Positions 5,135 to 15,274 of a stretch of DNA of 32,000 nucleotides are shown in pieces. Numbering within the stretch: the first letter of the stretch is position 1; each line of letters starts with the position of its first letter. This DNA comes from Candidatus Electronema halotolerans. GTDB taxonomy: Bacteria; Desulfobacterota; Desulfobulbia; Desulfobulbales; Desulfobulbaceae. Position numbers and translations under genes: made by a program. The stretch spans positions 1,620,001-1,652,000 of the forward strand of contig OW818675.1 of NCBI GenBank assembly GCA_942493095.1, written 5' to 3'. The notes below the pieces were generated by a model that made no database searches, had not been told where the DNA came from, and was given only the letters and a program-made list of their open reading frames with translations.

Positions 5135-5649
5135 GCTGAGAGCAAAAGGAAATTGTCGTGCCGTCCTGCATCGGAAGCAGGGCACAGGTGCAGTTTACCA
5201 GCAGGAAGGCAAAGAGGCAATGCAAAACACAAGAACTTGCCGCTGAGGAAAAAGAACAGGATTTCAGTCTGCTGCCTTTGGACAGCACCGCCTTTTTCAG
5301 AAAAGACCGTGCTGTCCGTCTGAACTCCCAGTTCTCTTTTTCTTTTACAAAACAGCGTGTTGCTGAACGCCTCCGGCAGGAAGACGGAACAAGGCCTGTT
5401 CTTCAGCAGACGGCCCGGCAGGATTCATTTCACCAGCAATGGCAAAAAAATCGGGAAGATATTTCAAGGCCTGACAGCCCTGCCATCAGCACCCTTCCTT
5501 GCGCCTTCGCACGGCCCGTTCGTTTCGCTGTGAAGTCTGACTTTACAGTGGTGTTCTCAGAAGAAATATGCTATCCTGATGGGCACGTGTTATATACTGT
5601 ACTGTTATCTCTGGTTAAAGGTTGCACCCTGTTGAGGAGGGGCTATTTC

Positions 5650-5871
5650 ATGCAGTTCAACGCCATCATTGAGCATGACCAAGACGGCTGGTATGCGTAT
5701 GTCCCTTCCTTGCAAGGCTGCGTGAGCCAAGGCGACACGCTGGAAGAGGTGCTTGCCAATATCAAAGAGGCCGTCGAGCTGTACTTGGAAGACATGGACG
5801 AGCAGGAGAAGGAAAGCCTTTCCAAATGCAGCTATCTTATAGCTCCCATTCAGATTGCAGCGCATGTCTAA
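5650..5871 (+). CDS. hicB: HicB-family antitoxin (UPF0150-type)
   Basis: MQFNAIIEHDQDGWYAYVPSLQGCVSQGDTLEEVLANIKEAVELYLEDM matches the classic HicB N-terminal fold pattern (..GGY.A.VP.L.GC.SQG.T.EEA..N..EA...). A GAGGAGG Shine-Dalgarno sequence lies 9 nt upstream of the ATG at 5650. The longer track ORF from 5158 is an upstream read-in. Confidence 0.85.
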   Translation: MQFNAIIEHDQDGWYAYVPSLQGCVSQGDTLEEVLANIKEAVELYLEDMDEQEKESLSKCSYLIAPIQIAAHV

Positions 5872-6070
5872 GAAGTGGCCGCGTCTGACTGCGCAGGAGG
5901 CGGAAAAGCTGCTGCTGGACAAAGGATTCGAGTTGTCCCGGCAGAAAGGCAGTCACCGAGTGTACCGCAAGGACAGCTGCCGCATGGTCATTCCGCACCA
6001 TCAAGGAAAAACGCTGCATCCGAAAATCATCAGAGAGCTGTTCGATCTGCTGCTTGATGCCACAAAGTGA
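5864..6070 (+). CDS. hicA: HicA-family mRNA interferase toxin
   Basis: MSKKWPRLTAQEAEKLLLDKGFELSRQKGSHRVYRKD...VIPHHQGKTLHPKIIRELFDLL shows the HicA/YcfA pattern (GSH...vP.H.gK.l..g....I). The ATG at 5864 overlaps the hicB stop by 8 nt (ATGTCTAA). Confidence 0.85.
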   Translation: MSKKWPRLTAQEAEKLLLDKGFELSRQKGSHRVYRKDSCRMVIPHHQGKTLHPKIIRELFDLLLDATK

Positions 6071-6112
6071 GCAGGATTGACGTGATGCAGCACCTGCCCA
6101 TTCTGTGGCATT

Positions 6113-7279
6113 CTACCTCACCTTCCCCAGCCTCTCCCTCGACTCCTCATTCTTTGCCAGCCGGTTACGCAGCTCCTCCAGCTTGGCCCGCTCCTTCTCC
6201 ACCACATCCGCCGGGGCATTGGCAAGGAACTTCTCATTGCCGAGCTTGCCGCGCACCCGCTGCAAGTCCTGCTCCAGAGTCTTACGCTCGCGGGCCAGCT
6301 TGTCCAACTCCGCATCCACGTCAATCAGCTCCTTGAGCGGCACGACCACCTCCACCCCGCTGACCAAGCTGTGCGCCGCATCGTCCGGCACCGCGCCTGA
6401 TTCTGCAATCTCCAGCGTCTCAGCGCGGGTCATGGCGCAGACAGAGCCGCTGAACGACTGAAGCAGCTCGCGCTTGGCTGCGTCAGCACAGATCAGGCTG
6501 ACATGCAGCTTCGCGCTCGGATGCACGTTGGCCTCGCTGCGGATGGTGCGCACCGCTGTGATGATCTCCATAAGGAGCTGCATGGACTGCTCGGTCTCGG
6601 CATCCTGCCACGCCGGCTTGGCCTCTGGGAATGACTCAAGCATGATCGTGCCGCGTTCGCCCGGCAGTTGGCTCCAGATTTCCTCAGTAACGAACGGGCA
6701 GATCGGGTGGAGGAGCTTGAGAATGTGCTCCAGCACACAGAGGAGCACGCCCCGCGCCTCCTCGCGCTTGGCAGTGTCATCGCTGAACAAATCCGCCTTG
6801 ATCCACTCCACGTACCAGTCGCAGAACTCATGCCAAGTGAACTGGTAGATGGCCGAGGCGATCAGGTTGAAGTCATAGCCGTCCAATGCCTTGCGCACGT
6901 CGCGGATGGTGGCGTTGGTGCGGCTCAATATCCAGCGGTGCGGCAGGGCCAGCTTGCCCGGTTCGTCCGCCACCGCAACAATGTCCGGCTCGCTCTCCTT
7001 GATGTGCATCTGGGCGAAGCGGGCCGCGTTCCACAGCTTGTTGATGAAGCGGCGGTAGCCGTCGATGCGCTCCTCGTCCATCTTGATTTCACGCCCTTGC
7101 GCAGCGAAAGCGGTCAGGGTGAAGCGGAAAGCATCGGTGCCGTACTGGGCGATCATGTCGAGCGGGTCGATCACATTGCCCGTTGATTTGGACATCTTTT
7201 TGCCGTGCTTGTCGCGCACCAAGGCGTGCAAATACACGTCGCGGAACGGCACCTCGTCCATGAAGTGGAGGAGCATCAT
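6113..7279 (-). CDS. 5'-truncated valyl-tRNA synthetase paralogue (C-terminal 388 aa: KMSKS loop, anticodon-binding domain, C-terminal coiled coil). The ORF is intact; it may be a relic pseudogene.
   Basis: It aligns without gaps to residues about 523-911 of the full valS ORF at a constant offset of 6283 nt. I count about 33 aa substitutions in 388 by hand, and roughly 90% nt identity. The catalytic Rossmann and editing domains are absent. Its ATG overlaps the stop of the upstream TPR gene (TGATG). Confidence 0.7.
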   Translation of the reverse strand: MMLLHFMDEVPFRDVYLHALVRDKHGKKMSKSTGNVIDPLDMIAQYGTDAFRFTLTAFAAQGREIKMDEERIDGYRRFINKLWNAARFAQMHIKESEPDIVAVADEPGKLALPHRWILSRTNATIRDVRKALDGYDFNLIASAIYQFTWHEFCDWYVEWIKADLFSDDTAKREEARGVLLCVLEHILKLLHPICPFVTEEIWSQLPGERGTIMLESFPEAKPAWQDAETEQSMQLLMEIITAVRTIRSEANVHPSAKLHVSLICADAAKRELLQSFSGSVCAMTRAETLEIAESGAVPDDAAHSLVSGVEVVVPLKELIDVDAELDKLARERKTLEQDLQRVRGKLGNEKFLANAPADVVEKERAKLEELRNRLAKNEESRERLGKVR

Positions 7280-8241
7280 CAGAGGGATGATTCCTGCCGC
7301 TCTGCCCGCACTTCCTCCAATGCTTTGCGGTCATCCTTCAAATCAGGATGATCGACAGCCTCTTCAATATGCACGGCTTTGCTGATATATTCCTCCGCCT
7401 TGGCAATATCGTCTATATCGTAATATGTGAGGCCAATGTTCCAACAGCTTTCCGCTTCTCCAATCTTATCTCCAACTTCTTTGCGTGTTGCCAAGGCTCG
7501 TTTGTGATATTCTAACGCCTTGGTATAGTTGTTCAATGTACGGAATATTTCGCCGATATTGTTCAATGACGTACCCGCTCCAGCCTTATCGCTTTCTTGT
7601 AAGGTTATATCCAAGTTATAATACGTCAAAGCTGTCTCATAGTCACCTTGCTCATAATAAAGTCTGCCGATGTTGTTCAGAACTATTCCTTCTCCCTTTC
7701 GATCTCCTCCCTTCCGACATATCGTCAAGTCTTGCTCGTAATATTTCAAGGCCAGCTTATGGTTGCCCTGCTGCTGATATATCTCTGCGATGTTGTTTAA
7801 GGTCAATCCTTCACCTTGCCTATCCTCCAGCTCTCGGTCTATCTCAAGGCTTTGTTCATACCACATTAATGCTTTCTCGTGTTCACCGCGCCGCCCACAA
7901 ATGTAGCCGAGATTGTTCAGACACATGCTTTCATTTCTGCGGGCACCTTGCTGTCGGGCCGCATTCAAGTTCATCTCAACGACCGCCATATTTTCTGCCC
8001 AATACCCCTGCTGGTCTAAGTAGGTATTGATTGCTTCAGCTAAGTCATTTACCTCTTGCCACAGCCTGCTAGCCAAGCAGACCTCCAACAACCGCAGGCA
8101 TTGCACTCGCTCCTTATTCAGCCGAGCGTACCCCGCCGCACCACGAGCACTCTCCTTTTCTGCCAATGCAGTATAGTGCGCAGCAAGCCGTTGGTATACT
8201 TCGGTCAGTTCAGCACTTGAAGCAGTATGGTTAGACATCAT
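7279..8241 (-). CDS. TPR-repeat protein, NLR-type sensor arm paralogue B (helical linker plus five 40-aa TPR_12-like repeats)
   Basis: It contains repeats of the form LNNIG.IY..QG.Y..AL.YYEQ.L.I....GD..GEG. The N-terminal 45 aa are nearly identical to the 5' stub at 10747..10879. The start is the ATG at 8241 (or 8238), while the track ORF starts at the TTG at 8247. Confidence 0.85.
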   Translation of the reverse strand: MMSNHTASSAELTEVYQRLAAHYTALAEKESARGAAGYARLNKERVQCLRLLEVCLASRLWQEVNDLAEAINTYLDQQGYWAENMAVVEMNLNAARQQGARRNESMCLNNLGYICGRRGEHEKALMWYEQSLEIDRELEDRQGEGLTLNNIAEIYQQQGNHKLALKYYEQDLTICRKGGDRKGEGIVLNNIGRLYYEQGDYETALTYYNLDITLQESDKAGAGTSLNNIGEIFRTLNNYTKALEYHKRALATRKEVGDKIGEAESCWNIGLTYYDIDDIAKAEEYISKAVHIEEAVDHPDLKDDRKALEEVRAERQESSL

Positions 8242-8265
8242 TCTCAATGGTCTGACTTGAACTCA

Positions 8266-8396
8266 CACTATGGTGTGAAGAAGGGAGACACTACGGTATC
8301 TCCTGTCGAGACACCAAGGTAACTCTCGTGGAGTCACTATGGTAACTCGGAGGGAGACACTACGGTGTCTCTTTGGGAGATATCGTAGTGTCTCCC
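8266..8396. repeat. Three copies of a 20-22-nt palindromic hairpin unit (GGAGACAC-TACG-GTRTCTCC): two direct copies embedded in a 38-nt direct repeat, and one inverted copy
   Basis: Copy A is at 8266..8303 (cactatggtgtgaagaagggagacactacggtatctcc). Copy B is at 8335..8372 (cactatggtaactcggagggagacactacggtgtctc). Copy C, inverted, is at 8375..8396 (gggagatatcgtagtgtctccc). In copy B, gagacac/gtgtctc forms a perfect 7-bp stem with a tacg loop. All copies lie in the 163-nt gap between the two TPR genes. Confidence 0.8.
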
Positions 8397-8404
8397 ACGA
8401 AAGG

Positions 8405-9260
8405 CTATTTCTCTCCAGTCGGCCCCTGTGCCGCCAGCCGTTTTGCTCGCACCCGTTCCAATCCATCGCGGCTATCTACTATATTAGGGCTACCGATGGC
8501 TTCTTCAATCTGTACAGTACGGCTGATGTATTCTTCCGCCTTGGTAAGGTTGTCTATGTCTTCATAGGTGAGGCCGATGTTCCAGCATGTGACCGCTTCT
8601 CCTGCCTTGTCACCCAACTCCCGGCATATTGCCAAGTCTTGTTGATGATACTCCAATGCCTTAGCATGATCACCTTGCGCACGGTAGATCATGGCAATGT
8701 TGGTCAGGGTTGTTCCTGCCCCAATCTTATCGCCAATCTCTTTTACGATAGGCAAGCATTGCTCATAGTATGACAAGGCTTGCTCATTGTCACCTTGTAC
8801 CCTGTAAGTCATACCGATATTATTTATGATCTTACTTTCCCCCTCCCGGTCGCCGATCTCCTGACAGATGCTCAGACTTTGCTGGTATGTCTCCAAGGCC
8901 AGCTCGTACTTGCCCTGTTGATGATAAATCGTTGCAATGCCGGTTAAGGTTGCGCCTTCTGCCGGTCGATAACCAGCGAGGTAGGCGGCAGGCAGGCTTT
9001 GCTCATACCACGCTAATGCCTTATCAAGCTCCCCGCGCCGCCAGCAGGTGTAGCCTAATGTACACAGGCACCAGCTTTCATCCTTACGGTTGTTGCTTTT
9101 TCGGGCCGCAGTCAGACGCATATCAAAAGCGGCCAGCAGCTCTGTCAACCAGCCCTGCCGGTCAAGGTAGATATAAGTTGCACCGACTAAGTATTGCAAC
9201 TCCTGCCACAGCCTGCTTTCAAGGCAACTCTCCATCACCCGCATACACTGCACCCGCTCC
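8405..9260 (-). CDS. TPR-repeat sensor arm paralogue A, 3' portion of a gene split by the IS66-family insertion (5'-truncated, probably not expressed as such)
   Basis: Track ORF 8405..9253 begins VQCMRVMESCLESRLWQEL. This continues the 5' stub (..GYARLDKER) exactly as paralogue B reads (..GYARLNKERVQCLRLLEVCLASRLWQEV). Five TPR_12-like repeats follow. Confidence 0.85.
9253..9260. repeat. Target-site duplication, left copy (CCCGCTCC)
   Basis: The 8-bp sequence cccgctcc directly abuts IRL. An identical 8-mer abuts IRR at 10747..10754. Confidence 0.9.
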
Positions 9261-10746
9261 GTAACTGATCACAGGGTGTCTCTAAAAAACACTGGCGCTT
9301 GGCATCGCAACTGGATAAATTGTGAGCAGTAATTTTTTCCGCAGGAGAAAGCTGTGACCGCCCCGTTCCATCGTGAAAATTTTGAGATAAGCGAGGAAGA
9401 CCTTGCCGCTACACCTCCTGCGGTGCGGAAGCTGCTGTCTTTTTTGATCGCTGAGGTAACGCGGCTGAGAAAACGGGTCGAAGAGCTTGAGGCGAAACTC
9501 GGCGAAGATTCCTCGAACTCGAACAGGCCGCCTTCTTCCGACTCTCCGTTTACAGAAAAACGGCAGAGAGATCAGGCGGGGAAGCCCCGGAAAAAGCGGC
9601 GTGGATATCGTCAGGAGCTGATGCCGCCGACAGAAACGCAAAAAATGTATCCTTCCGCCTGCTCCTGCGGTTGCGGCAAATTCAAAAACATACGGTCATA
9701 TTATACGCATCAGCATATTGAACTGCCGGAAATCGTGATGCAGGTCAGGCATTTCCTTCTTTATAAAGGTGAATGCGCCGCCTGCGGCAAAACCGTCAGA
9801 GGCTGTGTTCCCGATGAATTCAGAACCGGTTTCGGGGCGCGGTTCACCGCGCTGGTTGCCGAACTGAGCGGCATGGACGGCAGCAGCCGGGGAACTGTGC
9901 GGAAGTTCATCCGTTCCGTGCTCGGCGTTCCTATCAGTGCCGGGGCGGTGCAGAAGATCATTGACCGGGCTTCGGCGGCTGTCGCGCCGCACTATGAGGC
10001 CGTCCGGGCTGCCGTCACAAGCGGGGATATCGGACATGTTGATGAAACAACGTGGAAAACTGGCGGCAGGCTGCGCTGGTTATGGGTTATGGCGAACCGG
10101 CAGGCCGCGTTCTTCATGATTCATCCGAAACGCTCTAAGGAAGCCTTTGAAGAACTGATCGGCGCTTGGAACGGTATTCTCATCAGCGACGGGTACAACG
10201 TGTACCAAAAATGGGTCGGCAAGCGGCAGACTTGCCTCGCGCATCTTATCCGCCGGGCAGACGGCCTTGCGGAGCGCGCTGACCCTGAACTGGCTGCCTG
10301 CGGCAAATGGGCCGCTGCGGAACTGCGGCGGCTCTGCCGCATGGCGAAAGACCCGCCGACCAAAGGTGAACAGTCCGCATTTTATGCCCGGCTCTGCCGA
10401 CTTATCCTGCGCTGGCGCGATTGCGACAGTGATGCGGGGAGGTTTGTCCGTCATATTGAGAAGGAAATGGCTGCGTTGTTCACTTTTCTGCTCGAAGAAG
10501 GCGTAGAACCGACAAATAATCCAGCGGAACGGATGCTCCGCTTCGGCGTGCTGTGGCGCAAACGGAGTCAGGGCACTGACAGCGACAAGGGAAACCGCTG
10601 GGTTGAACGAATCCTTTCCCTCCGGCAGACATGCCTGCTTCGGGGAAAATCCACTTTCGAGGTGCTCACCGAGGCCATGCGCTGCTATTTCAGAGGACAG
10701 ATGCCGGATTTAAGCTGGGTCTGAGCGGTACCCTGTGATCGCTTAC
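9261..10746 (+). mobile_element. IS66-family insertion sequence, single-ORF (ISBst12-like) type, 1486 bp, apparently intact
   Basis: The terminal inverted repeats are GTAACTGATCACAGGGT (9261..9277) and the reverse complement of 10730..10746, GTAAGCGATCACAGGGT (15/17 match, with the GTAA ends typical of IS66). The element is flanked by an 8-bp direct repeat and contains one complete transposase ORF. Confidence 0.92.
9354..10724 (+). CDS. IS66-family transposase (TnpC-type DDE)
   Basis: 456 aa. It has an N-terminal leucine-zipper-like helix (LIAEVTRLRKRVEELEAKL) followed by NSNRPPSSDSPF, a Cys cluster (CSCGCGKF...CAACGK), and then a DDE core (HVDETTW...ISDGY...NNPAERMLR). This is the hallmark IS66 TnpC layout. 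It uses a GTG start. Confidence 0.93.
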   Translation: MTAPFHRENFEISEEDLAATPPAVRKLLSFLIAEVTRLRKRVEELEAKLGEDSSNSNRPPSSDSPFTEKRQRDQAGKPRKKRRGYRQELMPPTETQKMYPSACSCGCGKFKNIRSYYTHQHIELPEIVMQVRHFLLYKGECAACGKTVRGCVPDEFRTGFGARFTALVAELSGMDGSSRGTVRKFIRSVLGVPISAGAVQKIIDRASAAVAPHYEAVRAAVTSGDIGHVDETTWKTGGRLRWLWVMANRQAAFFMIHPKRSKEAFEELIGAWNGILISDGYNVYQKWVGKRQTCLAHLIRRADGLAERADPELAACGKWAAAELRRLCRMAKDPPTKGEQSAFYARLCRLILRWRDCDSDAGRFVRHIEKEMAALFTFLLEEGVEPTNNPAERMLRFGVLWRKRSQGTDSDKGNRWVERILSLRQTCLLRGKSTFEVLTEAMRCYFRGQMPDLSWV

Positions 10747-10754
10747 CCCGCTCC
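10747..10754. repeat. Target-site duplication, right copy (CCCGCTCC)
   Basis: Identical to 9253..9260 and directly abuts IRR. Confidence 0.9.
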
Positions 10755-10879
10755 TTATCTAATCTGGCATATCCCGCCGCACCGCGAGCACTTTCCTTTT
10801 CTGCCAATGCAGTATAATGTGCAGCAAGCCGCTGGGATACTCCAGTCAATTCGTCACTTGACGCAGCATATTCAGGCAT
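10747..10879 (-). pseudogene. 5' stub of TPR sensor arm A (first about 44 codons), severed by the IS66-family element
   Basis: MPEYAASSDELTGVSQRLAAHYTALAEKESARGAAGYARLDKER then runs into IS sequence. The ATG at 10879 overlaps the NB-ARC stop by 8 nt (ATGCCTGA). Removing 9261..10754 restores one 336-codon ORF collinear with paralogue B. Confidence 0.88.
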
Positions 10880-11999
10880 TGACAGTGCCCTCCCACATGG
10901 TTTTGGCATGAACTGTCAGAAGCGCGTGCATCTGGAAGCGCACCTCGCCATCCTCCTGATACGGCTCCAGCAGCCCGCGCCTCTCCAGCTCGCGGATTGT
11001 TGAACGCGGATTCTCCACTCCCCATGCCGCTGCTATGGCAGCAAGATCAAAGGTTGCCGGTTTCGGCGCAAAGACTCCCAAAAAGGCAAACTGCTTCCGG
11101 GTCAGCACATCAAGACGGTCGGTGCTTTTCCGCAGGAGAGCCGCTACGGTAGGTGTAGTCTGGCCGGATAAATCAGTGCGGTCTGCCGGTGCAGATTCTT
11201 TCAGGAGGCGGGTGCCTTCAGCCAGCTCGTCCAGCAAGTCACTGACTCCCCAGCCCAGCGGAGCTTCAGCGGCAAGCAGGCTGCCGGCAACCTTCAGAGC
11301 CAAGGGCAGCCCTTCCAGTTCCTGCACCAACCGCCGCACTCCTTGCTCATCTTGCGCCACCGAATCAGGCGAAAGCTGGCGGATCAACTCGATGGAATCC
11401 TCTTCCGACAGCACCAGCAGCCGGTACACTGACTTGTCCGGCAAACCCAGCTTCCGCGCCACGTCAGGTTCGCGGGTGGTGAGCAGCGTCCGGCACGACT
11501 GCCCGCCGACAAGGAAGGGCTGCGCATCGGCAGCCTGCCACACGTCATCTATGATCAGCAGCATCCGGCGGTCGCGCAGCAGCCCGGCAAGTCGGTTCTG
11601 CCGTTCTTCAATGCGCTGATACCGCTGCGGATCATCACCAAATGCAAGCAGCCATTGCCCCAGTCCTGCCAAAGGATTCGGCGACATACCCAAGGCCGTC
11701 CACAGCACACCGTCCGGGAACGCCTTCTTCACTTCGGCATCATGGGCTATTGCCGCCGCCAGCGTGGTCTTGCCGATTCCGGGCCAGCCCCGCACGCTGG
11801 TAATCAAGGTTGCTGACGGCTTGCCAAAGAGACGCTGCCGTAGCTCGGCCATGTCATTGTCGCGTCCGATGAACAGGTTGGGTGCTGCTGGCAGCAGGCC
11901 GGGAAACGAAACGGTTGCTTTATTGGAAACCCTCTGATTGACGGTGCCCTGTTCTTCGACAATATTGACGATACTGTTGCTGATATTGGTGTCACTCAT
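10872..11999 (-). CDS. NB-ARC (STAND/NLR-type) P-loop NTPase core with no effector or repeat domain
   Basis: 375 aa carrying the full ordered NB-ARC motif set. These are the Walker A motif GWPGIGKTTLA (aa 71-81), Walker B LLIIDDVW, RNBS-B-like RTLLTTR, GLPL (LEGLPLALKVAGSLL), a winged-helix FAFLGVFAP, and an MHD-like QMHALL (Ala in place of Asp). Only about 45 aa precede the NTPase domain. Confidence 0.9.
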   Translation of the reverse strand: MSDTNISNSIVNIVEEQGTVNQRVSNKATVSFPGLLPAAPNLFIGRDNDMAELRQRLFGKPSATLITSVRGWPGIGKTTLAAAIAHDAEVKKAFPDGVLWTALGMSPNPLAGLGQWLLAFGDDPQRYQRIEERQNRLAGLLRDRRMLLIIDDVWQAADAQPFLVGGQSCRTLLTTREPDVARKLGLPDKSVYRLLVLSEEDSIELIRQLSPDSVAQDEQGVRRLVQELEGLPLALKVAGSLLAAEAPLGWGVSDLLDELAEGTRLLKESAPADRTDLSGQTTPTVAALLRKSTDRLDVLTRKQFAFLGVFAPKPATFDLAAIAAAWGVENPRSTIRELERRGLLEPYQEDGEVRFQMHALLTVHAKTMWEGTVNA

Positions 12000-12017
12000 A
12001 ATATGCCTCGTTCTGAC

Positions 12018-12371
12018 TTACAGGCCAAACAGTTTGGCGCAATAAATGGCCGCCTGTGACAGCATATTGCCAACCTTGACGACAGCAGCGACGGTCTTGG
12101 GCAACTGCGCAATAATCATTTCGGCATTCTTCAGACTGCTCAATGCCTTCACAGGCTCATTTTTGACCTGCTGCTCCGCTTCATCCAGCTCATCCCGCAC
12201 CTTCGTCTGCACATCTTCCGGCAGTGCCGCTGTTTCGGTTTTGATTGCCGCTATCAGATTCAGCAAATCCTCAAATGAAGGTTGTTGTGTGCTATTGATG
12301 ATCTGATTGATTACGTCGATCTTTTCAGCCACAGTAACCGTGCTGCCGGTGATGTTGAATGTGTTGTTCAT
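12018..12371 (-). CDS. Small (117 aa) hypothetical protein: N-terminal N/T/I/V-rich motif, acidic helical middle, hydrophobic/amphipathic C-terminal tail; candidate effector or adaptor of the NB-ARC cassette
   Basis: A strong AAGGAG Shine-Dalgarno sequence lies 7 nt upstream of the ATG. The gene starts 24 nt after the valS stop and ends 18 nt before the NB-ARC start. I recognise no family. The N-terminus resembles the NB-ARC N-terminus (see findings). Confidence 0.7.
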   Translation of the reverse strand: MNNTFNITGSTVTVAEKIDVINQIINSTQQPSFEDLLNLIAAIKTETAALPEDVQTKVRDELDEAEQQVKNEPVKALSSLKNAEMIIAQLPKTVAAVVKVGNMLSQAAIYCAKLFGL

Positions 12372-12395: not shown

Positions 12396-13562
12396 TTATT
12401 TCACCGTCCCCAACCTCCCCCTCGACTCTTCGTTCTTGGCCAGCTTGGTCTCCAGCTCCTCCAGCTTGGCCCGCTCCTTCTCCACCACATCCGCCGGGGC
12501 ATTGGCAAGGAACTTCTCATTGCCGAGCTTGCCGCGCACCCGCTGCAAGTCCTGCTCCAGCACCTTGCGCTCGCGGGCCAGCTTGTCCAGCTCCGCGTCC
12601 ACATCAATCAGCTCCTTGAGCGGCACGACCACCTCAATCCCGCTGACCAAGCTATGCGCCGCATCGTCCGGCACTGCGCCGGACTCGACAATGTCTAAGC
12701 TTTCAGCGCGGGTCATGGCGCAGATCGAGCCGCTGAACAACTGAAGCAGCTCCCGCTTGGCCGGATCAGGGCAGATCAGGCTGACATGCAGCTTCGCGCT
12801 CGGATGCACATTCGCCTCACTGCGGATAGTGCGCACAGCCGTGATGATCTCCATGAGGAGCTGCATGGCCTGCTCGGTCTCGGCATCCTGCCACGTCGGC
12901 TTGGCCTCCGGGAAGGACTCCAGCATGATCGTGCCGCGCTGGCCCGGCAGTTGACTCCAGATTTCCTCAGTAACGAACGGGCAGATCGGGTGGAGCATCT
13001 TCAGGATATTCTCCAGCACACAGAGAAGCACGCCCCGCGCCTGCTCGCGTTTGGCAGTATCATCGCTGAACAAATCGGCCTTGATCCACTCCACGTACCA
13101 GTCGCAGAACTCATGCCAGGTGAACTGGTAGATGGCCGAGGCGATCAGGTTGAAATCATAGCCATCCAATGCCTTGCGCACGTCACGGACAGCGGCATCA
13201 GTGCGGCTGAGTATCCAGCGGTGCGGCAGAGCCAAGGCCGCCGGATTGTCTGTGACCGCCGTGATGCCCGGCTCGCTCTCCTTGATGTGCATCTGGGTGA
13301 AGCGGGCTGCGTTCCACAGCTTGTTGATGAAGCGGCGGTAGCCGTCGATACGCTCCTCGTCCATCTTGATTTCCCGGCCCTGGGCGGCAAAGGCGGTCAG
13401 GGTGAAGCGGAAAGCGTCGGTGCCGTACTGGGCGATCATGTCAAGCGGATCAATGACGTTGCCGGTGGACTTGGACATCTTCTTGCCGTGCTTGTCGCGC
13501 ACCAAGGCGTGCAGATACACATCGTGAAAGGGCACCTCGTCCATGAAGTGCAGGCCCATCAT
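12396..13562. repeat. Direct-repeat copy 2 of the valS 3' end (its partner is 6113..7279)
   Basis: The alignment is gapless at a constant offset of 6283 nt at both ends. Homology stops within a few nt of the stop codon on one side and at the ATGATG run on the other. Confidence 0.9.
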
Positions 13563-15086
13563 CATCATCCGCGCCACCCAGAAGAAGAGGATGTCAAAGC
13601 TGGTGATCAGCACCGAGGTGGGATAGAAGGTGGCCAGTTCTTTGGTCTGGTCCGGCCAGCCAAGGGTGGAGAAGGGCCAGAGCGCGGAAGAAAACCACGT
13701 GTCGAGCACGTCATGCTCCTGCTCAATCTGGCTGCTGCCGCACTTGCCGCAGACGGTCGGGTCAAGCGAGACCACGGTCATCTCACCGCAGTCAGCACAA
13801 GTCCAAGCCGGGATGCGGTGGCCCCACCATATCTGCCGCGAAATGCACCAGTCGCGGATGTTGTCCATCCAGGCGTAGAAGGTATTGTACCACGTGTCCG
13901 GGTAGAGCTTGATCCGGCCCTCGCGCACTGCGGCAACCGCCTTGTCTGCCAGCGGGCGCACTGAGACAAACCACTGCTTGGAGGTGGTTGGCTCCACGAC
14001 CGTGGCGCAGCGGTAGCACTTGCCGACCGCGTGCTCATAGTCCTCGATCTTGTCGAGGAAGCCAAGTTCGGCCAAGTCCTTGACAATCTGCTCTCGGCAG
14101 GCGAAGCGGTCCATGCCAGCGTACTTTCCGGCGTTCTCGTTCATGATGCCGTGCTCGTCCATGATCTTGATCCGCTCCAGATTATGGCGCAGGCCGATCT
14201 CGTAGTCGTCGCGGTCGTGCGCAGGCGTGACCTTGAGCGCGCCCGTGCCGAAATCACGCTGGACATGGTGATCAAGCACCACCGGAATGATGCGGTCAAC
14301 AATGGGCAGGCGGATGCCGATTTTGTCCAGCCCGGCATAGCGTTCATCATCAGGATGCACGGCCACCGCCGTGTCGCCGAGCATGGTCTCAGGCCGGGTG
14401 GTGGCGATCACCACCGAGCCGGAGCCGTCCGAGTATGGATAGCGGAGATGATAGAGCTTGCCGTGGGTCGGGTCGTGCTCCACCTCGTCGTCAGACAAAG
14501 CGGTCTTGCAGCGCGGGCACCAGTTGACGATGTAGTCGCCCTTGTAGATCAGGCCCTCGTTGTAGAGGCGGACAAAGACCTCGCGCACCGCCTTGGACAG
14601 ACCCTCGTCCATCGTGAACCGCTCGCGGTCCCAGTCGCAGGACGCGCCCATCCGCTTGAGCTGCTTGATGATCGTGCCGCCCTTGTCGGTGCGCCATTGC
14701 CAGACCCGCTCAATGAACTTGTCCCGGCCCAGCTCGTGGCGGTTGGTCTTCTCAGCAGCAAGCTGCCGCTCCACCACGTTCTGGGTGGCAATGCCCGCGT
14801 GGTCAGTGCCCGGCACCCAGAGGGTGTTGTCGCCTTTCATCCGGTGATAGCGGGTCAGCAAATCCTGAAGCGTGTTGTTGAGGGCGTGGCCGATATGGAG
14901 CACACCGGTCACGTTCGGCGGCGGAATGACAATGGAAAAGGCAGGGCGGCCCGGCTCCATTTGTGCGCTGAAGGTCTTGCCCTCAAGCCAGTATTGATAC
15001 CAGCGTTCTTCAACCTCCTCGAATTCATAGGCTTTGGGCAGGTCGTATTTGGCGGCGCACTGCGGCGTGGTCGTCTCGTTGCTCAT
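12396..15086 (-). CDS. valS: Valine--tRNA ligase (full length)
   Basis: It has the class I HIGH motif (PNVTGVLHIGHALN), a KMSKS motif, an editing (CP1) insertion, an anticodon-binding domain and a C-terminal coiled coil. I trimmed the start to MSNETTTPQ.. (ATG at 15086); the track ORF extends 15 codons further to 15131. Confidence 0.97.
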   Translation of the reverse strand: MSNETTTPQCAAKYDLPKAYEFEEVEERWYQYWLEGKTFSAQMEPGRPAFSIVIPPPNVTGVLHIGHALNNTLQDLLTRYHRMKGDNTLWVPGTDHAGIATQNVVERQLAAEKTNRHELGRDKFIERVWQWRTDKGGTIIKQLKRMGASCDWDRERFTMDEGLSKAVREVFVRLYNEGLIYKGDYIVNWCPRCKTALSDDEVEHDPTHGKLYHLRYPYSDGSGSVVIATTRPETMLGDTAVAVHPDDERYAGLDKIGIRLPIVDRIIPVVLDHHVQRDFGTGALKVTPAHDRDDYEIGLRHNLERIKIMDEHGIMNENAGKYAGMDRFACREQIVKDLAELGFLDKIEDYEHAVGKCYRCATVVEPTTSKQWFVSVRPLADKAVAAVREGRIKLYPDTWYNTFYAWMDNIRDWCISRQIWWGHRIPAWTCADCGEMTVVSLDPTVCGKCGSSQIEQEHDVLDTWFSSALWPFSTLGWPDQTKELATFYPTSVLITSFDILFFWVARMMMMGLHFMDEVPFHDVYLHALVRDKHGKKMSKSTGNVIDPLDMIAQYGTDAFRFTLTAFAAQGREIKMDEERIDGYRRFINKLWNAARFTQMHIKESEPGITAVTDNPAALALPHRWILSRTDAAVRDVRKALDGYDFNLIASAIYQFTWHEFCDWYVEWIKADLFSDDTAKREQARGVLLCVLENILKMLHPICPFVTEEIWSQLPGQRGTIMLESFPEAKPTWQDAETEQAMQLLMEIITAVRTIRSEANVHPSAKLHVSLICPDPAKRELLQLFSGSICAMTRAESLDIVESGAVPDDAAHSLVSGIEVVVPLKELIDVDAELDKLARERKVLEQDLQRVRGKLGNEKFLANAPADVVEKERAKLEELETKLAKNEESRGRLGTVK

Positions 15087-15274
15087 GGTCTGGCGGAAGA
15101 AAATAGAAAAAAAGTGCAGTAACGGCTTCACGCAGCGTCTGCTTAACCGCAGAAAGATGCATGAAGCCGACTGCTGGACAGATTGTCAAGTAAACAAACA
15201 GAGTTCCTGTAGATTCACAGGCAGAAAGATAACGACACGGCTGCGCTGATGCAGCTGCAATGGCTGTGTCCGCC

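Follow-up and report, generated by a model that had tools for sequence, protein, structure and literature searches.

Immediately downstream of valS in Candidatus Electronema halotolerans, two adjacent genes encode proteins that begin with the same kind of short peptide. They lie in a 32,000-nucleotide stretch (contig OW818675.1 of assembly GCA_942493095.1, positions 1,620,001 to 1,652,000), which we refer to as the window. The first gene encodes a 117-amino-acid protein with a predicted four-helix C-terminal domain, and the second encodes a 375-amino-acid NB-ARC protein. A preliminary description of this DNA had proposed that the two are a homotypic signalling pair, and the positions that it gave for the open reading frames were correct, as were the length of the small protein and the 18-nt spacer. 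The genes are collinear on the same strand. The small gene begins 24 nt after the valS stop codon and has an AAGGAG ribosome-binding site 8 nt 5' of its ATG. There was no convincing terminator between the small gene and the NB-ARC gene, in a promoter and terminator scan that performed at chance level. This part of the locus contains the following features.

12396..15131, minus strand: full-length valS, immediately upstream of the pair and the left border of the cassette site
12018..12371, minus strand: open reading frame of the 117-amino-acid partner protein (N-terminal motif plus four-helix C-terminal domain)
12279..12371, minus strand: motif A of the small protein (codons 1-31, MNNTFNITGSTVTVAEKIDVINQIINSTQQP), read as strand-turn-strand and disordered in the AlphaFold2 (AF2) model
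12021..12278, minus strand: helical domain of the small protein (codons 32-117), placed by AF2 helices and homology to the C-terminal part of the PADLOC candidate PDC-M14B
12021..12098, minus strand: last helix of the small protein (codons 92-117, KTVAAVVKVGNMLSQAAIYCAKLFGL), with the family signature at a free C-terminus
10872..11999, minus strand: gene for the NB-ARC-only STAND NTPase, 375 amino acids (Pfam NB-ARC, E=1.4e-26)
11892..11999, minus strand: receptor-side motif A (NB-ARC codons 1-36, MSDTNISNSIVNIVEEQGTVNQRVSNKATVSFPGLL), placed by alignment and AF2 disorder
11757..11789, minus strand: P-loop GWPGIGKTTLA (NB-ARC residues 71-81), read from the sequence

We compared the window proteins with Pfam and also read the window in six-frame translation. 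The 375-amino-acid protein is an NB-ARC STAND NTPase without an effector domain, as had been described. The Pfam match to NB-ARC spans residues 47-245, with no domain recognised N-terminal of it. The sequence has GIGKTT at residues 74-79, inside the P-loop that the preliminary description had located correctly at residues 71-81, as well as a Walker B segment (LLIIDDVW) and GLPLAL. Its AF2 model has a predicted template modelling score of 0.76.

The match between the two N-termini is significant. BLASTP reproduced the earlier hand alignment (13/37 identities, 22/37 positives, and one gap; E=0.002 with composition-based statistics). The Smith-Waterman score was 51, compared with 22.6 +/- 4.7 when the same residues were shuffled; 0/5000 shuffles reached 51. 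A hidden Markov model of the motif, run against the six-frame translation of the whole window, matched these two open reading frames only. A likeness had also been reported at the DNA level. There the quoted string had to be corrected, to GTAATCAATCAGA in the small gene and GTCAATCAGA in the NB-ARC gene, and only 57/108 nucleotides (53%) are identical when the motif codons are aligned. Therefore, the similarity has been kept at the protein level, and recent duplication is out as its source.

Both N-termini are rich in N, S, T, Q, I, and V and nearly devoid of L, K, and P. The small-protein motif has five N, five T, five I, three V, and three Q, but only one K, one P, and no L. The same bias extends through the family: across 148 representatives, the 30 residues before helix 1 are rich in N, Q, G, S, T, and I and poor in L, P, and K (N 10.6% versus 4.9%, G 14.1% versus 7.2%, and L 1.9% versus 9.9%). 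This is also the published bias of bacterial amyloid signalling sequence (BASS) motifs, which are enriched in Q, N, G, V, and I and depleted of K, P, and L (Dyrka et al. 2020, 10.1101/2020.01.06.895854). In the AF2 model of the small protein, the predicted local distance difference test (pLDDT) score is below 50 at residues 1-20 and 26-28, where there is no confident secondary structure. In the NB-ARC model it is below 50 over residues 1-33, again with no secondary structure, and in both models the remainder is confidently folded.

The preliminary description had left two kinds of homotypic pairing open, amyloid-like and one mediated by an effector-associated domain (EAD). Motif matches across loci, described below, support the first, and we reject the second. 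EADs, as known from STAND and vWA-MoxR conflict systems, would serve the same logical role of homotypic effector-NTPase coupling (Kaur et al. 2020, PMC7159879). Like the present motif, they join diversifying effectors to a constant NTPase core in multicellular prokaryotes, and other members of the NB-ARC family do have N-terminal Pfam domains. However, EADs are folded domains, whereas the shared part here is a peptide of about 30 residues, and the helical domain is not common to the NTPase. No Pfam EAD was hit at E<=0.1. Because the shared N-termini are predicted to be disordered in both proteins, they are not globular EADs. The sole Pfam lead was bpX0, a domain of MoxR-vWA-beta-propeller systems, for which the window protein scored 19.8 bits against a cut-off of 27 (E=0.001); it was matched by only 1/34 family members, so we took it for chance. 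The text of Kaur et al. 2020 (PMC7159879) has neither "bpX" nor amyloid in it. A globular EAD is the least credible of the explanations that we weighed.

Motif and partner across loci

Co-variation of the two N-termini, which the preliminary description had named as a check, was found across a set of loci drawn mostly from cable bacteria (Ca. Electrothrix/Electronema). A contig scan with the NB-ARC protein as the query contributed two relevant loci. There are five motif types, and each matches its own neighbour and none of the others. Three of the types precede a single C-terminal helical domain in the small-protein family (about 60 clusters). These three, and the motifs of the upstream partner and receptor at each locus, are as follows.

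Motif type A (window): MNNTFNITGSTVTVAEKIDVINQ
Motif type B: MSDIKIIHGDNFESSGGxQYIAKDNA
Motif type C: MGNTYTNSGSGEQNIAIGKHAVAEQ
L001 and L005: small protein, NB-ARC-only receptor; A on both
L006 and L011: small protein, NB-ARC-only receptor; B on both
L019: small protein, fused NB-ARC-TPR receptor; B on both
L015: small protein, receptor of 434 amino acids with motif, coiled coil, and TPR but no NTPase (5468-6772); C on both
L007/L008: 144-amino-acid HetE-N (Bell-like) protein with a C-terminal motif, NB-ARC-only receptor; BASS6-like on both
L009: pentapeptide-repeat protein with a C-terminal motif, NB-ARC-only receptor; E on both

In a 9x9 matrix of loci, same-type pairs had an average score of 56 and different-type pairs 21.6. 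Cognate z scores against shuffles were 6.6-15 in 7/9 loci, 3.9 at L001, and 1.5 at L005. A further locus, L023, pairs a divergent type A small protein with a different NOD-like receptor (NLR) lineage, and its two motifs also match (50 versus 20 +/- 4; 0/2000 shuffles). Outside the NB-ARC context, at L020 and L021, the C-terminal motif of the upstream protein matches the N-terminus of the small protein. At L010, an NB-ARC protein carries motif C with no small gene adjacent.

The receptors differ mainly where the motif lies. At the type B and BASS6-like loci, the NB-ARC cores share 85-91% identity with the window core, whereas the N-terminal parts are 24-30% identical, and the first 30-55 NB-ARC residues are swapped among unrelated motif types. 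Because the cores are near-identical and the N-termini divergent, the motif must have been exchanged as a module along with the partner gene.

These data bear on whether the likeness in the window could be a chance product of low complexity, or a decaying and functionless remnant of a partial duplication. The segment is indeed short and compositionally biased, and the L005 pair barely exceeds its shuffles. However, none of the composition-preserving shuffles of the window pair reached the observed score, and protein similarity has been kept despite a nucleotide identity of 53%. Furthermore, five unrelated motif types match their own neighbours, and the match recurs with unrelated partners. The co-variation effectively refutes a chance match or remnant, which we regard as very improbable.

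We also compared the motifs with BASS profiles. We derived profiles for BASS1-9 from one sixth of the published sequences (PMC8086366 supplement), a sample in which BASS10 was represented by one sequence. The motif of the L005 NB-ARC protein (MSDNTISNSIVNIIQGRDTV), which is the Electronema orthologue of the window NB-ARC protein, scored 13.3 bits on the BASS2 profile (0/200 shuffles). The Bell-side motif of L007 scored 9.5 bits on the BASS6 profile (2/200 shuffles). From these comparisons, motif A is best described as a possibly BASS2-derived motif of the amyloid-signalling type, with no BASS1-9 assignment.

Alternatively, the shared peptides might bind each other specifically and stoichiometrically, by beta-augmentation or a short beta-zipper, with no templated polymerisation. 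This would suit a motif that has no BASS family assignment, whose two versions, on receptor and partner, share only 35% identity, and whose amyloid character is something that we infer. However, its composition, length, disorder, position at the NLR N-terminus, and gene order, together with the lifestyle of the host, all fit published amyloid pairs. In addition, the same locus elsewhere in cable bacteria holds a classical Bell-like/BASS6-like pair on an NB-ARC core that is 85% identical. A non-amyloid contact therefore seems to us improbable.

The C-terminal helical domain of the partner

Beyond the motif, the small protein is predicted to be helical. Its mean pLDDT is 73.8 overall, averages over ten-residue blocks reach 76-89 beyond residue 30, and predicted helices span residues 33-47, 52-68, 73-88, and 95-115. 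The protein matched no Pfam family, an NCBIfam search gave nothing useful, and no relatives were found among viral contigs. The best hit of a sequence profile search of the PDB was a small terminase (E=0.018), which we judged to be chance. The small protein is rare: a single-sequence query recovered four clusters, of which the named one was from Ca. Electrothrix. A profile that included a divergent member recovered about 60 clusters at 90% identity, and an exhaustive profile search for the helical domain recovered 420 clusters at 50% identity. On these sequence comparisons, the four-helix domain of about 90 amino acids is an unannotated domain, a new partner domain rather than Bell.

The domain lies strictly at the C-terminus. 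In 116 of the 119 representatives that contain the last helix, it ends no more than 10 residues from the C-terminus of the protein. The preliminary description had proposed an inverse topology, with the motif at the N-terminus of the partner and the membrane-like segment at its C-terminus, and this is correct: almost throughout the family the helical domain is C-terminal and follows directly on the motif. P79 and L88 are conserved in the domain, and the last helix has the signature A..[LVI]-G-x-L-[LIV]-G-[KQ]-A-[IL]-x-W-[C/A]-G. A hydrophobic C-terminal tail had also been noted. It is present but only moderately hydrophobic, with a maximum Kyte-Doolittle score over 19 residues of 1.3, which is like that of the N-terminal helix of the Bell-like protein (1.15).

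At the family level there is homology to PDC-M14B, a phage-defence candidate in PADLOC. Of 34 small-protein family members, 33 match three profiles of this candidate (E as low as 2.5e-8, and 6e-4 for the window protein), and the matches cover both the motif and the helical domain. However, they take in only the C-terminal ~110 of ~265 profile positions, leaving the N-terminal ~150 unmatched. The partner proteins did not match the PDC-M14 models, and there was no PDC-M14A partner. A literature search found no paper on PDC-M14, so the name carries no mechanism.

Of the same 119 representatives, 63 are stand-alone proteins and 44 have more than 60 residues ahead of the domain. Motif and helical domain occur together in fusions with TIR (P0229), CHAT (P0203, and P0262, which also has EAD8), dCTP-deaminase-like (P0208), and AbiTii-like (P0281) domains. 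Others involve pentapeptide repeats or HetE-N/Bell-like domains (P0219 by Pfam, P0201 by sequence only).

In the two HetE-N/Bell-like fusions, P0201 (243 amino acids) and P0219 (266 amino acids), a HetE-N/Bell-like N-terminal part is followed by one or two tandem amyloid-type motifs and then by the C-terminal helical domain. From their sequences, such proteins would be double-headed, with a hydrophobic helix at either end.

The fusions raise the question of whether the domain kills at all. Motif coupling could be real and the helical domain be an adaptor, regulator, or anchor instead. It might keep the motif soluble as a cis-acting cap, tether the protein to the membrane, or serve as a docking module. 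In that case the stand-alone 117-amino-acid protein would set the threshold for NB-ARC signalling, as a buffer, decoy, or fuse, and other motif-bearing proteins encoded elsewhere in the genome would kill. Placement of the module C-terminal to recognised effector domains (TIR, CHAT, dCTP-deaminase-like, AbiTii-like, and HetE-N/Bell-like), in a family with 44/119 such extended members, points this way. So do orphan small genes (L017) and the motif C NB-ARC protein with no adjacent small gene (L010). However, the small protein is the sole non-receptor gene product in the window, L001, L005, L006, L011, L019, and L023, where the NB-ARC protein has no effector domain. Moreover, stand-alone forms are the majority (63/119), and a strictly free C-terminus with a GxxxG/W motif resembles an active element and no passive cap. 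We consider an adaptor role rather unlikely, though a more serious contender than a non-amyloid contact.

A proposed mechanism and its relation to known systems

Taken together, these sequence data suggest that the locus is probably an NLR-type conflict cassette of a cable bacterium, acting in abortive infection or programmed cell death, in which the receptor signals to its partner through a matched BASS-type amyloid-like motif. In this scheme, one or more separate, translationally coupled TPR proteins would detect a trigger, and the NB-ARC NTPase would oligomerise. Its disordered N-terminal motifs (residues ~2-30) would thereby gather and take on a cross-beta fold (strand-turn-strand), which would template the related motif at the N-terminus of the 117-amino-acid protein. 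The four-helix bundle would then be remodelled, and the conserved C-terminal GxxxG/W-C-G helix would be freed to act on the membrane. We favour such conditional membrane action because the small protein is the sole non-receptor component, its last helix is strictly C-terminal and has a GxxxG/aromatic signature, and its hydropathy is Bell-like.

A broader proposal, which we put forward tentatively and would not call probable, is that the helical domain is an executioner of cell death, gated by amyloid, and that it represents a class both new and widespread. It would be a mirror image of HeLo and Bell, carried by cassettes that cable bacteria would exchange at a valS-linked hotspot and that would limit how far an infection spreads along the filament. 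If this is true, an active helix that needs a free C-terminus would account for the signalling motif being on the N-terminal side of the domain. The same need would explain why the domain is appended behind effector domains and never fused ahead of an NLR.

Several observations weigh against the amyloid-signalling cassette. The window motifs scored no more than 1.8 bits on the nine BASS profiles, within the range of shuffles for this one-sixth sample, and the test has power because L007 matches BASS6 and L005 matches BASS2. The best hhalign profile-profile match of motif A was BASS2, at E=0.069. That motif A has an amyloid fold is something that we infer. Within type A, cognate scores are no better than cross-lineage scores, and the L005 cognate pair is marginal. 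Some family members, such as that at L017, have no adjacent receptor. A Foldseek comparison of the small-protein AF2 model with the PDB returned generic four-helix bundles only (E>=0.3). At its Kyte-Doolittle maximum of 1.3, the last helix is too weakly hydrophobic for a constitutive transmembrane segment, and the fusions behind recognised effector domains may mean that the helical domain is not itself an effector. Finally, an IS66-family insertion has hit one of two TPR sensors and may have inactivated sensing in this genome.

The closest published parallel is the pairing of Bell effectors with BASS-bearing NLRs in filamentous bacteria. These pairs are 91% collinear and mostly no more than 10 bp apart or overlapping (10.1101/2020.01.06.895854). 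The window pair resembles them in having a short N/Q/G/V/I-rich motif that an NB-ARC/TPR receptor carries at its N-terminus and shares with the protein encoded by a close, adjacent, collinear upstream gene, and in having a multicellular host. The likeness extends to the valS site of other cable bacteria, where a HetE-N/Bell-like protein with a C-terminal BASS6-like motif accompanies the 85%-identical NB-ARC core. However, the partner in the window is not Bell, with no hit to PF20701 (HetE-N). Its motif occupies residues 1-31, whereas Bell effectors carry theirs C-terminally, as at L007; in the literature, amyloid signalling motifs are at NLR N-termini and effector C-termini. The hydrophobic helix is also reversed. 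It is C-terminal here (residues 92-117), behind an N-terminus that is a polar motif, whereas in Bell and HeLo it is N-terminal, with an acidic residue at position 2-3. In addition, separate genes encode the NB-ARC and TPR parts of the NLR, and the host phylum is Thermodesulfobacteriota, whereas the Bell domains of the 2020 survey came mainly from Cyanobacteriota, Actinobacteriota, and Chloroflexota (10.1101/2020.01.06.895854).

Two other systems share parts of this design. In the Bab/Agp abortive-infection system of E. coli (BASS11; Ibarlosa et al. 2024, 10.1101/2024.11.07.622273), two genes encode a small helical protein and a larger sensor that share an amyloid motif, which is N-terminal on the receptor. 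Agp, with the architecture TPR-GreA/B-C-PIN, shows that receptors other than NLRs can fill this role, and the TPR-only partner at L015 is a parallel. However, the hydrophobic helix of Bab is N-terminal and its motif C-terminal, and we found no relation in sequence or fold between Bab/Agp and the window protein. Bab/Agp has demonstrated phage defence, whereas the window cassette is known from sequence. In the HET-S/NWD2 system of Podospora anserina, NLR oligomers template amyloid in a partner whose helical domain exposes a membrane-active terminal helix (PMC13506858). The order in the window protein (motif, bundle, and terminal helix) is the mirror image of that in HET-S, and its membrane step is a proposal. 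Pfam HeLo, HET-s_218-289, Ses_B, and NACHT_sigma had no hits in the window proteins.

The names attached to close homologues are Ca. Electrothrix, Ca. Electronema, and "Desulfobulbus sp. F5." The filaments of cable bacteria are multicellular and reach centimetre lengths, and in them the death of a single cell has obvious consequences. A multicellular filamentous host is as expected for amyloid-signalling systems. Amyloid signalling from NLRs to cell-death effectors is established in fungi, and it has recently been reported in filamentous Actinobacteria and Cyanobacteria and in one E. coli antiphage system. The effector motif is described as C-terminal in all of these, beside a HeLo/Bell-type domain. 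Our literature search found no paper that links cable bacteria with NLRs or amyloid signalling. The coupling principle is known, then, and what is new is a partner domain with inverted polarity, the motif types, the host lineage, the chromosomal context, and the split NLR. With 420 clusters of a domain of opposite polarity, searches confined to effector C-termini would have missed a whole class. If the proposed coupling is right, it extends the amyloid-signalling paradigm to cable bacteria. The single chromosomal site, where near-identical NB-ARC cores are joined to differing motif/partner cassettes, amounts to a natural swap experiment and a ready system for the study of motif specificity. 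The finding also gives the PADLOC candidate PDC-M14B its first functional handle.

The receptor genes and the borders of the cassette site

The rest of the cassette lies downstream of the NB-ARC gene.

10746..10879, minus strand: 5' part of the first TPR sensor gene (ATG at 10879)
9262..10745, plus strand: IS66-family insertion (transposase open reading frame 9354-10724; Pfam DDE_Tnp_IS66, E=1.1e-34)
8405..9261, minus strand: 3' part of the first TPR sensor gene (TPR by Pfam; frame restorable)
7279..8247, minus strand: second TPR gene, intact, 322 amino acids, a paralogue of the first (TPR by Pfam)
6113..7279, minus strand: duplicate of the 3' part of valS, 388 amino acids, the right border of the cassette

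There are 1620 homologues of the NB-ARC protein at E<=1e-20. In the NB-ARC-only family of about 375 amino acids, some proteins start with a short peptide rich in G, N, Q, V, and I, and the others with a known domain. The family rule is an NB-ARC-only protein of this length followed by a TPR gene that overlaps it by 8 nt. In the window, the ATG of the first TPR gene (10879) overlaps the NB-ARC stop codon by 8 nt (ATGCCTGA), which implies translational coupling, and the overlap is identical in L001, L005, L006, and L007. Ca. Electronema aureum GS likewise has two TPR genes at this place. The preliminary description was therefore right that the NLR is split into separate genes, but part of the fragmentation that it saw is due to the IS66-family insertion.

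A subgroup of the NB-ARC homologues (P0040, P0047, P0061, and about 20 similar proteins) combines, in this order, a transmembrane helix, a conserved motif of the GGDILASTGGDVTKIGTQVNQ type, and the NTPase. Judged by sequence, such NLRs would be anchored in the membrane and carry their amyloid-like motif internally.

The IS66-family element has terminal inverted repeats GTAACTGATCACAGGGT and GTAAGCGATCACAGGGT, of the form GTAA(C/G)(T/C)GATCACAGGGT. It is flanked by an 8-bp target duplication, CCCGCTCC, at 9254-9261 and 10746-10753. When the element and one copy of the duplication are removed, the reading frame of the first TPR gene is restored (...LDKER followed directly by VQCMRVMES...), as in orthologues. 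The insertion is therefore probably recent. It breaks the first TPR sensor, so the cassette may be impaired in this genome.

The spacer between the two TPR genes (8248-8404) contains three to four imperfect palindromes, GGGAGACAC...GTGTCTCCC, which resemble repetitive extragenic palindromic (REP) hairpins and have a period of ~23 nt.

On its right side, the cassette ends at a duplicate of the valS 3' part that is 89% identical to valS at the nucleotide level (first 300 nt compared). Beyond it lie mreB, mreC, and the gene for penicillin-binding protein 2 (PBP2). In other cable bacteria, the valS 3' site holds alternative cassettes of type A, type B, or the Bell-like/BASS6-like kind (L001, L005, L006, L008, L010, and L011), and at L006 a remnant of the valS tail persists 3' of the TPR genes. 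From this arrangement, the site appears to be a hotspot at which recombination exchanges cassettes.

Small-protein genes also lie directly behind other housekeeping genes, namely proS (L015), hslR (L017), and a prephenate dehydratase gene (Pfam PDT; L002). Between the valS duplicate and mreB in the window, an open reading frame at 5158-5871 on the plus strand encodes a protein that ends in a HicB-like antitoxin domain (Pfam E=8.5e-10). At L019 (GCA_040772385.1), the 460-bp spacer between the small gene and the NLR gene (5402-5861) is filled with repeated palindromic units, CCCTGAAAGGGC/GCCCTTTCAGGGC.

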